64,000 bases of DNA. Source: Dictyostelium discoideum (lineage: Eukaryota). Numbering within the stretch: the first letter of the stretch is position 1; every line of letters starts with the position of its first letter. The notes beneath the pieces are model-generated. The model had not been told where the DNA came from, did not search any database, and saw only the letters and a list, made by a program, of their open reading frames with translations. Made by a program: the position numbers and the translations under genes. The stretch lies in assembly GCA_000004695.1 (NCBI GenBank), contig CM000153.2:3168001-3232000 (forward strand), in the 5' to 3' direction. This document shows, piece after piece, positions 48,790 through 53,765 of the stretch.

Positions 48790-49723
48790 TTAGTTTAAAG
48801 GTGGATACTTTGAAACTTTAATTTTTGGAACCAAATTACTTCTAAATAAAACAAATGGCTCAACTGAAAGGAAAACTGATAATTGTTTAGAGATTTCAAT
48901 TTCTTCATCATCGTCGATTGGAGAAGAGTGATGTTGAGAGAGTGAAAGGAAATCACTTCTATCGCTTGACACTTCGAGATTATACTCTGAGAGATAGATA
49001 ACCAAATGTTTGGTAGACATTGTAACCACGATACCAGGTGTTAAGATTGGACCTTTCTCCCAAATGTAGGTTGCAAGATAGAGGAGATTTAACTTTTCAG
49101 ATATTTTTCTCTTCCAAGAGATATCGTTATATCTTTGACACAATTGAGTCAAATCATCACCAGTGGGTAATGATTTTTTAAAATCAGTAAATTCTTGACT
49201 TGATTCATCCCAATAGGGTTGAATGGTGATATCAGAACTCCAAACCACCTCTTTAGTCAATTGAAGTGAGAGAGCACGATGAATATTGACATCCATATAT
49301 CTTCTAATTGGTGCAGTGAAATGAGTGTATTGAGATCTCTCATCCAATAGATTTTCATTACCAAAGCCTTGTCTCTTTTCAACGGTTGTAATATATTTTG
49401 TTGGATCCATAAGATGCATTGCTAACCTTCTCATTGCTTTGGCTTGTTCAGGTGTACAATTTTTGAGAGCTTTTTCAACTTTGGTTTTAATGGTTCTCCA
49501 ATCATCTTCTGAAGAGACAACAATATTATTTACAAATTTCTTTATAAATACATTTAATCTCTCAAAGAATTTCTTTCTATTATCGAAATTATTATTAATA
49601 ATTGATGATGATGTTGTTGAGGTTGATATTGGAGTTGGTGTTGGAGTTGAAGATGGTGTTGGTATTGGAGTTGGTGTTGTTGATTTTGGTGTTGTTGGTG
49701 ATGGTAATGGTGATGATGTAGAG

Positions 49724-49776
<53 letters not shown>

Positions 49777-52091
49777 ACAATTATTTAAAATTGTTGAAGT
49801 AACAATAGTTTGTGGTATTGGTGTTTGAATTAAATTTGGATTTGTTTTACTATAGGATGAATAAACTATACCATAATCATAATTTGTATTTAATAAAGAG
49901 ACAGCTGCTAAATTATTTGCAAGATGCATAAACTCTTGAACCAATACATGACTCTCAAGTTTTGGTAAGAAATCAACAGAGATTGGAACACCTTCAACAC
50001 TAAGATCATATTGAATATTATTACTAATGTCAAAGATTTCTCTTCTTTCTTTTCTATAGTTATTTAAAAGACTACTAATTAGATAAAGTCCCCAAACTGA
50101 ATGATTTACCTTTGCTTCCAAGCCTAATCTTAGACCTTTAGTACCTGAACCACCACTACCAGAGCCATGACTATGTGGATTCATTTGATTTAATGGTGGT
50201 GGAGAATCATGGTCAGGATTATTTTCAATTTTCTCACGTTGTTCCTTTGCTAAACTTTCCAAAACATTTTTAAGAATTTCATTGGAACCATCGATAGTTT
50301 CTACCATTTTATTATTTGTGAAAGATTCTAATTGCTCGAAATTGGATTTATTCTTTTCAATGATTCTTTGCGCCTTTTCATAGGATAAATGACCTTTTGA
50401 ACGTAAATTTGATTTACAGAATTTATAATCAATGATTTTACCATCGGATCTAATCTTTACCAACAATGAGAAACAGAACCTCTTTTGATACAATTTCAAA
50501 CTACAAGTACTACTACTTAAATTCTTGGGTAACATTGGTATGATTGAACCAATCAAGTAGATGGTATTCAAACGGTACTCTGCTTCTTTATCCAATTTCG
50601 AACCTTTTTCAAGGAAAGCACTAACATCTGAAATGTGAATACCAATTTCGAATACGCTCATTCCTTCATCAAATTCATCGGTCAAACAACGGAAACTAAT
50701 TGCATCATCAAGATCGGTAGATGATGGTGGATCAATGGTGACTGGAACCAAATGGGTGAGATCAACTCTTCTCTCTTCTTCCCTATCGCTTGGTAACCAA
50801 TCATCGAAAACTTCATCGATTTCTTTTTGAAAGTGTTCAGTGTGAAATACTTGATGATTCAAAAGGATACAACGAGAAATTGATAACAAATCCAATGGCG
50901 TACCAAAAAAGAATTGAATGGTACCAATGGCATAAGTATTGTCTGGTGCAAACTCGGTCAATAATAAAATCGATAAACGACCACATCTCTCGGCCAAATG
51001 ACTATTACTAAGATTACTAATTAAATGAACGGTTGGTGTTGATTTCTCGTAGCAATTATAATAGAAAACACGATAATTATTATTTTCATCATCTTCATCA
51101 TCATAGAGATCATTGAAATGGTGATCATTATGATTAGCATGATGGTGGTTATGATTATGATGATGATGGTGATGATGACTATTATGACTACTATGACTAT
51201 TATGATTATTTCCATTCGAATGGAAATAATCATCTTTTTCTTTTGGTGCCGTCTTTGTGGAACCAACTGTTTTCTTTTTATCTTCACATTCTCTTAAAAA
51301 TCCTGTTAAAACTGTCGATTTAATCTCTTTATGTTGTAAATGTTGACTATGTGAAAATTTTGAAGGAATCTTATCAAATACAAATGTTGGTACTCTAGGA
51401 AGTGTACTAATTTGATTAGCTGGAAATATAATAACTTGATTCTCTTCTTTTAATTTCATTAATTCTCCAATTAATTGATGTTTTTTCGATTGAATTTTAT
51501 GATGTTGTGCTTGAGCTTGAGCTTGTTGTTGTGCTTGTTGTTGTTGTTGAGTTTGTTGTTGTTGTTGTTGTGATTGTTGTGGTTGTTGTTGTTGCTGTTG
51601 TTGTGGTTGTTGTTGTTGTTGTTGTTGTTGTGGTTGTTGTTGTTGTTGTTGTGATTGTTGTTGCTGTTGTTGAATTTGAGTGAATTGATGTATTGATTGA
51701 TGATGATGATGTTGTTGTTGTTGTTGTTGTTGTTGCTGCTGTTGTTGTTGAATTTGTTGAATTGTTTGAAATTGTGATTGTTGGAATTGATGGACAACCT
51801 TTGGACTACTTGTACCCCAATCAATTGGACTTATACCACCATCAATTAAATAATGATTATTTGATTGTGGATAAATTAAAGGTGAAGAATGACGTGGTGA
51901 AGCTGAATTTTGTGGATAATATTCAACATGATGACCAACAATACCACCACTTCCACTTAAATCAACATGTTGTTGATGTGATTGAAAGTAACCTTGAGAA
52001 TCTGATGAAAATAAATAATTTGGTTGAAATGATTGATAACCACTTAAGTGATCGCCATAAAGTGGACTACCTGTATTAATACTGTTATTTA

Positions 52092-52166
<75 letters not shown>

Positions 52167-52580
52167 TACTGTTATTATTGCTACCATTATTGCTACTATT
52201 ATTATTATTATTACCATTGTTATTATTATTGTTAATTGTTGAAAATGGTGATGATACCAATGATGATAATGGTGTATTATTACTAATACCATTACTACCA
52301 CTCATACTACTTGGTATAAACAATGATGAAGATGATGATAATTGTGAAGAAGAAGAAGATGATGGTGTTGAATTTGAATTGGAATTGGATGATGATACAT
52401 TAATACTATTACTTATACAATCACTCATTGATTGTAATGGGAATGGATCAGGATTCGTACATCTTATAACAGTTTTATATTCTCCATTAAAGTAAATCTT
52501 TATACAAGCTTGTCCACCATTCTATGATTTCAATAAATAAAAATTAAAAAAAAAAAAAGAATTAATTAATTTTGTTGAAC

Positions 52581-52629
<49 letters not shown>

Positions 52630-53046
52630 GATATATTCATTTTACATACATCAATTTTTCTAACACCTTTTAATTGAGAATAGAAACAAGATTTTGCATC
52701 TTTTGTAGTTTGAAATAAGATATAGAGTTGATTTGATTTACCTGTTGGTTTTAAAGTGAAATGATAAGGGCCAAATAAATTTTTAATATAAGTATCATTC
52801 ATACCTGGCATAATGTTATGAAGTAATAGTGTTCTAGAGGTCCATTCAATAACATCATCAATGAATACACTTTGCATCATCTCTTCGATCTCTCTATCTT
52901 TTTCACTCTTTGATGCTAATGCTATAAGATTTTCACTATCATTATCGATAATATTATTCCTATAATTCATTAAATTTTGTTGTTGTCTTTGATGAATTTG
53001 TTGTTGTAATTGTAATGATTGTAATTGATGAATTTGTTGAGCTTGC

Positions 53047-53128
<82 letters not shown>

Positions 53129-53292
53129 GCTGTTGTTGTTGTTGTTGTTGTTGTTGTTGCTGTATTTGTTGTTGAATTTGTTGTTGTTGTTGCTGTTGTT
53201 GTTGTTGTTGTTGTTGTTGTTGCTGTTGTTGCTGCTGTTGCTGCTGTTGTTGAATTTGTTGAGTTTGCTGTTGTTGAGTTTGCTGCTGTTGC

Positions 53293-53323
<31 letters not shown>

Positions 53324-53765
53324 GAGTTTGCTGTTGTTGTTGTTGTTGTGGTGGTTGAATGAATTGAGATTTGTTTAATTTTTTGTTTTTATTGGTATTA
53401 GTGTTACCATTTAAGTTGCTGTTAATATTGATACCATTGGCGTTATGAGTTGGTTTCTTTTTTTTGTAATCATTATGATTGTTTGTTAAATTTGAGTTTG
53501 AGATTTGCAGCGGTTGTTGTTGTTGTTGTTGTTTTTTTGGTATAGGTGGTTGATAAGGTGATACTTGTTGTGGTTTTATTGGTGAATGAGGTGAATAGGA
53601 TTGTTGTGGTTGAGGTGGTTGAGGTGGTGGCGTTGTTGATGATGGTGAGATTGTGTGATGTTTGGGTGAACTGTATTCATAATTTGTATTTTTTAATCTT
53701 CCACTAGACACTTGACCTCCGGTACTAGTTCCTGTTGTTGTCGATGATGTATTTGAATTATCCAC
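48790..53765 (-). CDS. RNB-domain 3'-5' exoribonuclease (RNase II/R, Dis3-like family) with an N-terminal exon encoding a polyQ region and an RRM-like module. Two exons: 53765..52650 and 52521..48790. Intron 52522..52649 (GTATGT...CATAG).
   Basis: The RNB motifs are 'VTIDPPSSTDLDDAIS...GIHISDVSAFLEKGSKLDKEAEYRLNTIYLIGSIIPMLP' and 'YTHFTAPIRRYMDVNIHRAL'. The upstream ORF 52566..53765 ends '...YILFQTTKDAKSCFYSQLKGVRKIDV' at a GTATGT donor in phase 0. The acceptor '...aatcatag|AATGGTGGA' is in phase 0 and runs for 31 in-frame codons ('NGGQACIKIYFNGEYKTVIRCTNPDPFPLQS') before the first Met of ORF 48790..52428. The 128-nt AT-rich spacer with (ATT)n is typical intron content. Confidence 0.6.
53045..53345 (-). 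repeat. (CAA/CAG)n coding microsatellite giving more than 100 nearly uninterrupted Gln residues
   Basis: The plus strand is about 300 nt of (TTG)n with sparse CTG/TTT/TAT interruptions. It translates to 'QQQQ...' inside the 5' exon of the RRM-RNB gene. Confidence 0.9.

Follow-up and report, generated by a model that had tools for sequence, protein, structure and literature searches.

A putative RRM-like domain, split by a conserved intron, ahead of a Dis3L2-like nuclease in Dictyostelium discoideum

The locus considered here raises the question of whether two adjoining open reading frames (ORFs), the first encoding a polyQ-rich protein with an RRM-like segment and the second an RNB-type ribonuclease, are parts of one gene, and, if they are, what kind of domain is formed where they meet. 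Both ORFs lie on the minus strand of a 64,000-nucleotide stretch of Dictyostelium discoideum DNA (positions 3,168,001 to 3,232,000 of contig CM000153.2, assembly GCA_000004695.1), which has a GC content of 22% and is referred to as the window. We regard it as nearly certain that 48790..53838 on the minus strand is one three-exon gene for a protein of 1619 amino acids (aa), in which the domain order is a polyQ/low-complexity N-terminus, the RRM-like segment, a low-complexity linker of ~310 aa, a conserved block, a CSD2-like region, the RNB domain and an S1-like region. The reading as a whole, comprising one gene, an RRM-like domain and a Dis3L2-like nuclease, is in our view highly likely. Since the merged model is already public, and the orthologues are likewise single genes, the call of the gene structure in itself adds nothing and the fusion is not new. 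What is probably new is the recognition of an unannotated RRM-like module, conserved across the Dictyostelia, on a Dis3L2-like nuclease. The gain is thus a label for ~100 conserved residues that are blank in the databases, in an uncharacterised Dictyostelium ribonuclease that the sources, for the protein and for its orthologues, name only as 'RNB domain-containing'.

The spliced junction and the gene model

The upstream frame, read on the minus strand, proceeds through TTA AAA GGT GTT AGA AAA ATT GAT and then meets GTATGT, the last base of exon 2 being 52650 and the donor G lying at 52649. A first-pass annotation of this DNA, made from the letters and an ORF list, had placed the end of the upstream ORF, given as '...LKGVRKIDV', exactly at this donor; the position of the donor is exact, but the exon ends ...LKGVRKID, the final 'V' being the GTA of the donor itself. 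The acceptor reads ...ATCATAG, with its AG ending at 52522, the phase is 0 on both sides, and splicing joins ...GVRKID to NGGQACIKIYF.... The intervening intron 2 (52522..52649, minus strand, GTATGT...CATAG) can be read directly as the 128-nt, GT-AG-bounded spacer with ATT repeats that had been described; it includes an (ATT)n run, none of its three frames is free of stops, and a search for AATAAA or ATTAAA within its 128 nt found neither. On the far side of the intron, the 31 codons NGGQACIKIYFNGEYKTVIRCTNPDPFPLQS ahead of the first Met (52428) are, as also reported previously, open and in phase, continuing into MSDC... of the 1212-aa ORF. Their GC content is 31%, compared with 28-32% in the flanking coding sequence and 8.6% in intron 2. 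Since between 17 and 22% of such windows here are open by chance, an open stretch of 31 codons is alone weak evidence, and it is conservation that decides.

The evidence of conservation comes from four dictyostelid relatives, in all of which the junction is contiguous in the protein. The first of these, L001 (Ga0256787_1002635, 4834 nt), is the single contig that emerged from a metagenome scan with the RNB core. It derives from a related dictyostelid, is 84% identical in the core, and carries a single 1469-aa ORF in which ...VRGIRKIDNSGQACVKILFNGEYKTVIRCTNPDPYP... is contiguous. The protein alignment crosses the predicted junction at 69% identity, while the DNA passes uninterrupted from ...AGATAGAT to AATAGTGGACAAGC, with no insertion opposite the 128-nt intron; this intron-less contig is either transcript-derived or has lost the intron. 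The NTNYEY motif of exon 2 is likewise common to L001, with its codons changed synonymously. When the exon-2 part of the RRM-like domain was used in an exhaustive HMMER search, three further orthologues were recovered, namely those of Tieghemostelium lacteum (KYQ94205.1, 1357 aa), Heterostelium album (XP_020430095.1, 1295 aa) and Synstelium polycarpum (a EukProt entry, 898 aa), each of which is a single protein with an RRM-like domain, an RKIDN[GS]GQ junction and RNB. Word-indexed homology searches returned no match for the spliced junction peptide and, for the RNB core, bacterial RNase R for the most part, dictyostelid proteins being absent; the orthologues surfaced only by the exhaustive HMMER search.

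When two of these proteins are mapped onto their genomes, a phase-0 intron is found exactly at RKID|N in each, of 68 nt in T. lacteum (GTTTGT...TATAG) and of 167 nt in H. album (GTAAGT...TTAG). The position of the intron, at the same D|N boundary and in the same phase, is therefore common to D. discoideum, T. lacteum and H. album. With GT-AG boundaries, frame-preserving removal, a non-coding composition and a position backed by orthologues, the 128-nt element is, to judge from its sequence, an ordinary spliceosomal intron conserved in position across the Dictyostelia. Comparison with amoebozoan orthologues, in this instance the dictyostelid relatives, thus supports both the junction and the position of the intron, and the proposal that the two ORFs are spliced into one product stands.

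The public record points in the same direction. One flanking ORF is an exact match to D. discoideum AX4 XP_638052.1 / Q54N91 / DDB_G0285437 and the other to XP_638050.1 / Q54N93 / DDB_G0285735, and the order of accessions between these flanking genes makes it almost certain that the locus is DDB_G0285435 / Q54N92, for which the listed name is 'RNB domain-containing ribonuclease' (PMC7149914). Between these two neighbours the assembly GCA_054883475.1 has a single gene call, with a product of 1619 aa and a range of 5049 nt corresponding to 48790..53838 of the window. Over these 5049 nt, CM142510.1 of that assembly differs from the window at one position, a synonymous change at 51925 (A in the window, T there), and the lengths of the polyQ and polyN tracts are equal in both. 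The public call, together with the contiguous orthologues and the introns at the same boundary in two genomes, indicates one spliced product; the 'two separate genes' attributed to the ORF track in the first pass arise only from the mechanical listing of ORFs. In the literature searched, the gene appears only as a table entry, and no paper on an RRM-RNB fusion or architecture was found.

The previously estimated length of about 1615 aa corresponds to the merged translation counted from a GTG at 53765, an ORF with no in-frame ATG before approximately residue 266, and becomes 1619 aa when a short first exon and a further intron are included. Just two ATGs occur on the minus strand in the 935 nt upstream of 53765, and a single ATG/GT-AG combination in this interval was seen to lead into the main frame, namely the ATG at 53838 together with a phase-1 GTAGTT donor. 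This model reproduces both the public range of 5049 nt and the product of 1619 aa, the arithmetic being that 5049 less 4860 coding nucleotides leaves 189 nt of intron, that is, 61 + 128. The proposed start would accordingly lie in exon 1 (53826..53838, minus strand), a 13-nt exon, ATGGTTTTTTTTT, specifying M-V-F-F and the first base of a Leu codon, and would be followed by a putative intron 1 (53765..53825, minus strand, 61 nt, GTAGTT...CTAAAG, 13% GC), deduced from the arithmetic of the public call. Exon 2 (52650..53764, minus strand) encodes a Ser/Thr/Pro/Gln-rich N-terminus, a long polyQ tract and the RRM-like domain as far as its fifth element, and ends ...GVRKID, and exon 3 (48790..52521, minus strand) encodes the end of that domain, the linker, the conserved block and the CSD2-like, RNB and S1-like regions, with a TAA stop at 48790-48792.

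Four other choices of start were rejected. The ATG at 53867 meets a stop and has no GT donor, and the ATG at 53838 used with an immediate GT donor is without a phase-0 acceptor. A variant with a 58-nt intron (MVFFCM...) yields 1620 aa, which mismatches the public call. A start at the internal Met (MNYRNN...) would leave 265 conserved codons upstream unexplained, and its product, like that of the 1212-aa ORF, had no match in an exact look-up in the protein collection. As a separate observation on L001, within its first 300 nt an ATG ORF at 11..286 (MATPTPANTT...) is out of frame with the 1469-aa ORF, which opens after a TAG at 274-276. A 59-nt GT-AG interval at 218..276 could join both ORFs in phase, the alternatives being a frameshift or a retained intron.

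The RRM-like domain

The domain formed at the junction is encoded in two pieces. Its N-terminal part (52650..52868, minus strand, residues 304-376) supplies β1 'LLLHNI', α1, β2, β3 'LYILF' and α2, and its C-terminal part (52438..52521, minus strand, residues 377-404) supplies an NGGQ loop, a predicted β4 'ACIKIYF' and the stretches EYKTVIRCT and PDP. The latter two are invariant in all five sequences of the profile used here (alignment A5: D. discoideum, L001, T. lacteum, H. album and S. polycarpum). That the 'ACIKIYF' segment would fold as β4 is suggested by this alignment and by its occurrence at the expected place after α2. Intron 2 splits the domain between α2 and this last strand, and consequently neither ORF by itself resembles a domain; domain-splitting introns conceal divergent domains from scans that proceed ORF by ORF.

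Assignment of the fold depends on profiles and models. When A5 was compared with the sequences of the PDB, the nine best matches were all RRMs, aligned in register, with nucleolin first (E 3.1e-5), the RRM of SDN1 second (E 1.3e-3), and U1A and nucleolin RBD2 also among them. Searches of the PDB with the N-terminal domain as a single sequence or as two sequences gave chance matches only. An hhalign comparison with an RRM alignment was likewise in register (P 5e-4, probability 31%), and the L001 orthologue gives a weak match to RRM_1, which also speaks for an RRM. An AF2 model of the exon-2 part (74 aa; pLDDT 68, pTM 0.56) has the order E-E-H-E-E-H, and the top 50 Foldseek matches to this model are nearly all RRMs, including PTBP1 RRM1, Matrin-3, p65 xRRM, nucleolin and Npl3 (E 0.03-0.2, probability up to 0.99). 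At the level of motifs, the RNP2-like L-L-[LIF]-H-N-I has no aromatic residue at position 2, which is Leu, while the RNP1-like N-Q-L-[YF]-I-L-F keeps two aromatics. On the strength of these profile and model comparisons, the N-terminal domain is likely to have a divergent RRM-like fold.

The nuclease and its known relatives

The sole Pfam family found in the protein is RNB (PF00773; score 213.6 bits, cut-off 29.3, E 5.8e-63), which also exceeds its gathering score in the four orthologues. The catalytic domain occupies 49267..50769 (minus strand, residues 961-1461), where the Pfam match, an AF2 core with pLDDT > 90 and the Foldseek matches to Dis3L2 coincide. The claim of an intact RNB core with DPPSSTDLDDA is borne out. 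This motif I lies at 50701..50733 (minus strand), and its four catalytic Asp residues (D238, D244, D246 and D247) occupy invariant columns of a 46-sequence alignment; motif IV, HFTAPIRRY (49297..49323, minus strand), aligns with HFTSPIRRY of the Dis3L2 chains, with PIRRY intact. From these residues we judge it quite likely that the RNB domain is an active nuclease.

The flanks of the catalytic domain are less sharply defined. On its N-terminal side a CSD2-like, β-rich region is predicted at 50890..51075 (minus strand, residues 859-920), where the phmmer alignments to Dis3L2 chains begin and where the AF2 model has strands at model residues 128-179 (pLDDT 63-80). The putative S1-like C-terminal β domain (48799..49053, minus strand, residues 1533-1617) contains strands at model residues 800-859 (pLDDT 75-89). 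The model from which these values are taken was built on the last 884 residues with the 46-sequence alignment and has a pTM of 0.70. Further upstream, a block HHKIQSKK...VIIFPANQISTLPRVPTFVF...TVLTGFLRECEDKKK (51271..51504, minus strand, residues 716-793) is ~80% identical to L001, is kept in P0246-P0248 and, as ...VIIFPANQISTLPRVPTFVFDKIPSKFSH...TVLTGFLRECEDKKK, is strongly conserved in all the dictyostelid orthologues. It matches no Pfam family and is modelled by AF2 with low confidence, and may be a remnant of CSD1 or a degenerate CSD1, or else a lineage-specific motif. Two further tracts, a polyN and Pro/Thr-rich insertion at 49588..49785 inside the RNB domain, absent from the 898-aa Synstelium orthologue, and a His/Asn-rich tract at 51076..51231 ahead of the CSD2-like region, are typical D. 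discoideum low-complexity expansions, the former being tolerated within the catalytic domain.

Among the members of the RNB family, the nuclease part is most similar to Dis3L2, the exosome-independent 3'-5' exoribonuclease known from human, mouse and S. pombe. In phmmer searches of PDB sequences the Dis3L2 chains are best, with E-values from 4e-34 to 1e-29 (9cy7 at 4e-34; also 4pmw, 8e29 and 4ro1), and are followed by Rrp44, RNase R and RNase II, the lead over Rrp44 being small (4e-34 vs 2e-30). Similarly, the nine best Foldseek matches to the nuclease model are all Dis3L2, in alignments that span ~770 columns and cover the CSD2-like and S1-like strands, with Ssd1 and Dss1 much weaker. No PIN domain was found in the Pfam scan, which is a further likeness to Dis3L2, as are the intact Asp quartet and PIRRY motif and the CSD2-like and S1-like flanks predicted in the model. 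The Dictyostelium protein nevertheless differs from Dis3L2 in ~715 extra N-terminal residues that include the RRM-like domain, in large low-complexity insertions, one of them inside RNB, and in an identity of only ~20% in the structural alignment; nor is a CSD1 detected in it.

The enzyme had been described as of Dis3L2/Ssd1 type, and here the two halves of the description part company. The fungal RNB pseudonuclease Ssd1/Sts5 shares with the Dictyostelium protein an RNB-family scaffold without PIN and a long disordered N-terminal region, but the PDB entry 7am1 describes Ssd1 as a pseudonuclease, whereas the catalytic Asp residues are intact in Dictyostelium, and Ssd1 is by far the weaker match (phmmer 7.9e-7 vs 4e-34; Foldseek 3e-21 vs 9e-38). 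Since the catalytic residues are intact and the match to Ssd1 is so much weaker, the Ssd1-type reading was rejected, and sequence and fold support a Dis3L2-type nuclease.

The combination of an RRM with an RNB nuclease, the novelty of which the first-pass annotation had implied, is unusual but not unique. Three environmental eukaryotic Dis3L2 proteins, P0046, P0121 and P0122, which fall into three separate clusters of proteins from JGI and ENA, have the same order of RRM, CSD2 and RNB, their RRM occupying the very N-terminus, in the place expected for CSD1. Their RRM is of the hnRNP F/H quasi-RRM type, is recognised by Pfam (33 bits on RRM_1 in P0046, above the cut-off) and is only weakly related to the dictyostelid domain (hhalign probability 31%). 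Compared with animal Dis3L2, their nuclease part has an identity of 50-59%, and their linker is short; they appear to represent an independent fusion. An analogy from outside the family is provided by Arabidopsis SDN1, a DEDDh 3'-5' exonuclease whose RRM-fold domain is reported to be crucial to the binding of substrates and to processivity (PMC6123492). Like the Dictyostelium protein, SDN1 is a 3'-5' exoribonuclease with one RRM-fold domain, and that domain is, as noted, the second-best PDB match of A5; unlike it, SDN1 has a DEDDh rather than an RNB catalytic fold, and its RRM adjoins the nuclease at the C-terminal end instead of being carried N-terminally on a linker of ~310 aa.

In this context the Dictyostelium protein would act as an exosome-independent, Dis3L2-like, processive 3'-to-5' exoribonuclease, in which the tethered RRM-like module would supply a further contact to RNA or to a complex of RNA with protein, helping to select or hold substrates. 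A stronger form of this proposal, which we consider unlikely, is that the dictyostelid Dis3L2-like nuclease has swapped its CSD1 arm for, or supplemented it with, the tethered RRM-like domain, such that recognition of specific RNAs or RNPs by the RRM, and not the oligo-U funnel of CSD1, CSD2 and S1 alone, would set the choice of substrate, the RRM-for-CSD1 arrangement of the P0046 type having arisen independently. Were the module to bind RNA, it would point to a lineage-specific mode of targeting for a decay enzyme of Dis3L2 type, in an organism that is amenable to genetics and for which recombinant antibodies are already available (RB374-375; PMC7149914).

Alternative readings and neighbouring sequence

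Several observations weigh against the reading of one gene with an RRM-like domain and a Dis3L2-like nuclease, and they concern each of its parts. With respect to the domain, the cut-off of Pfam RRM_1 (20.7 bits) is reached by no member of the family, the D. discoideum sequence giving no match; the best score is that of L001, at 12.3 bits (E 0.16), with weak SET_assoc matches in addition. The RRM-like segment recognised in the first pass is therefore upheld by matches of profile and fold but not by the Pfam threshold, and the HMMER comparison of the N-terminal exon with RRM_1, proposed at the same time, gives a negative result for D. discoideum. In addition, the AF2 model that resembles an RRM spans the exon-2 part alone, at its pLDDT of 68, and neither RNP2 position 2 (Leu) nor RNP1 position 3 (Gln) is aromatic, such that canonical stacking on RNA may be weakened. 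With respect to the nuclease, the Pfam models for CSD1/CSD, OB_Dis3 and S1 are not reached. With respect to the gene, the start relies on an exon of 13 nt whose GTAGTT donor is weak, and in no orthologue is the N-terminus (beginning MVFFL) conserved; given the tiny exon 1, the poor donor and the differing N-termini of the orthologues, the start codon is the least certain part of the model. Finally, an exact look-up of the 1619-aa model in the protein collection gave no match, and the internal splice sites of the public model are consequently deduced from its range and length only.

Of the alternatives, the one that survives best retains the gene structure and disputes the nature of the domain. 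The domain might be a ferredoxin-like pseudo-RRM engaged in protein interaction, or an ACT-like module for ligand binding or oligomerisation, instead of an RNA-binding RRM. The failure to reach RRM_1 and the missing aromatics at the two RNP positions, as read from A5, would both accord with such a module, as would the location of the strongest conservation (EYKTVIRCT and PDP) after β4, outside the canonical RNA surface. However, the PDB profile matches are exclusively RRMs and in register, Foldseek in its 3Di+AA mode places RRMs first, and H-N-I and L-Y/F-I-L-F are conserved at the places of RNP2 and RNP1. We therefore consider the pseudo-RRM possible but doubtful, and prefer a divergent RRM-like domain.

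A second alternative assigns a function to intron 2 itself, the regulated retention of which would act as a switch and yield a product of ~400 aa that keeps polyQ and a truncated RRM but lacks the nuclease. Read-through of the donor does give a short peptide, VCKMNISF(I)nVQQN*, and the intron does split a domain; yet that peptide is the translation of (ATT)n, the truncated domain would be without β4, and the intron varies in length and sequence among species (128, 68 and 167 nt), which together render such a switch very improbable by comparison with an ordinary intron. The weakest alternative is that of two genes independent of each other, the upstream one for a polyQ/RRM-like protein that would terminate in the 128-nt element and the other for a 1212-aa RNB protein initiated at Met 52428. 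It can appeal to the two ORFs of the mechanical listing, to the stop met 27 codons beyond the donor and to the ATG of the downstream ORF, but is effectively refuted by the want of a usable ATG in the upstream ORF, by the shortness, 8.6% GC, GT-AG boundaries and lack of AATAAA of the spacer, by the conservation at the protein level of the pre-Met codons, by the contiguity of the orthologues and the retention of the intron position in two other genomes, by the single public gene and by the lack of a separate protein-collection entry for the 1212-aa product.

As regards the surroundings of the gene, the neighbours at 46213..48378 and 55269..56237 bear consecutive identifiers in newer Dictyostelium annotations (KAM9942506/KAM9942507; ACTFIR_010958/010959), which suggests that in some of these sets a protein record may be missing for the RNB gene, rich as it is in low-complexity sequence, despite the 1619-aa call in GCA_054883475.1. 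Upstream of the RNB gene, a divergent intergenic region of 1.4 kb (53839..55268) separates it from a TatD-like gene; the GC content of this region is 0-19% per 100 nt, and it contains long homopolymer and (AAAAAT)n-type runs.

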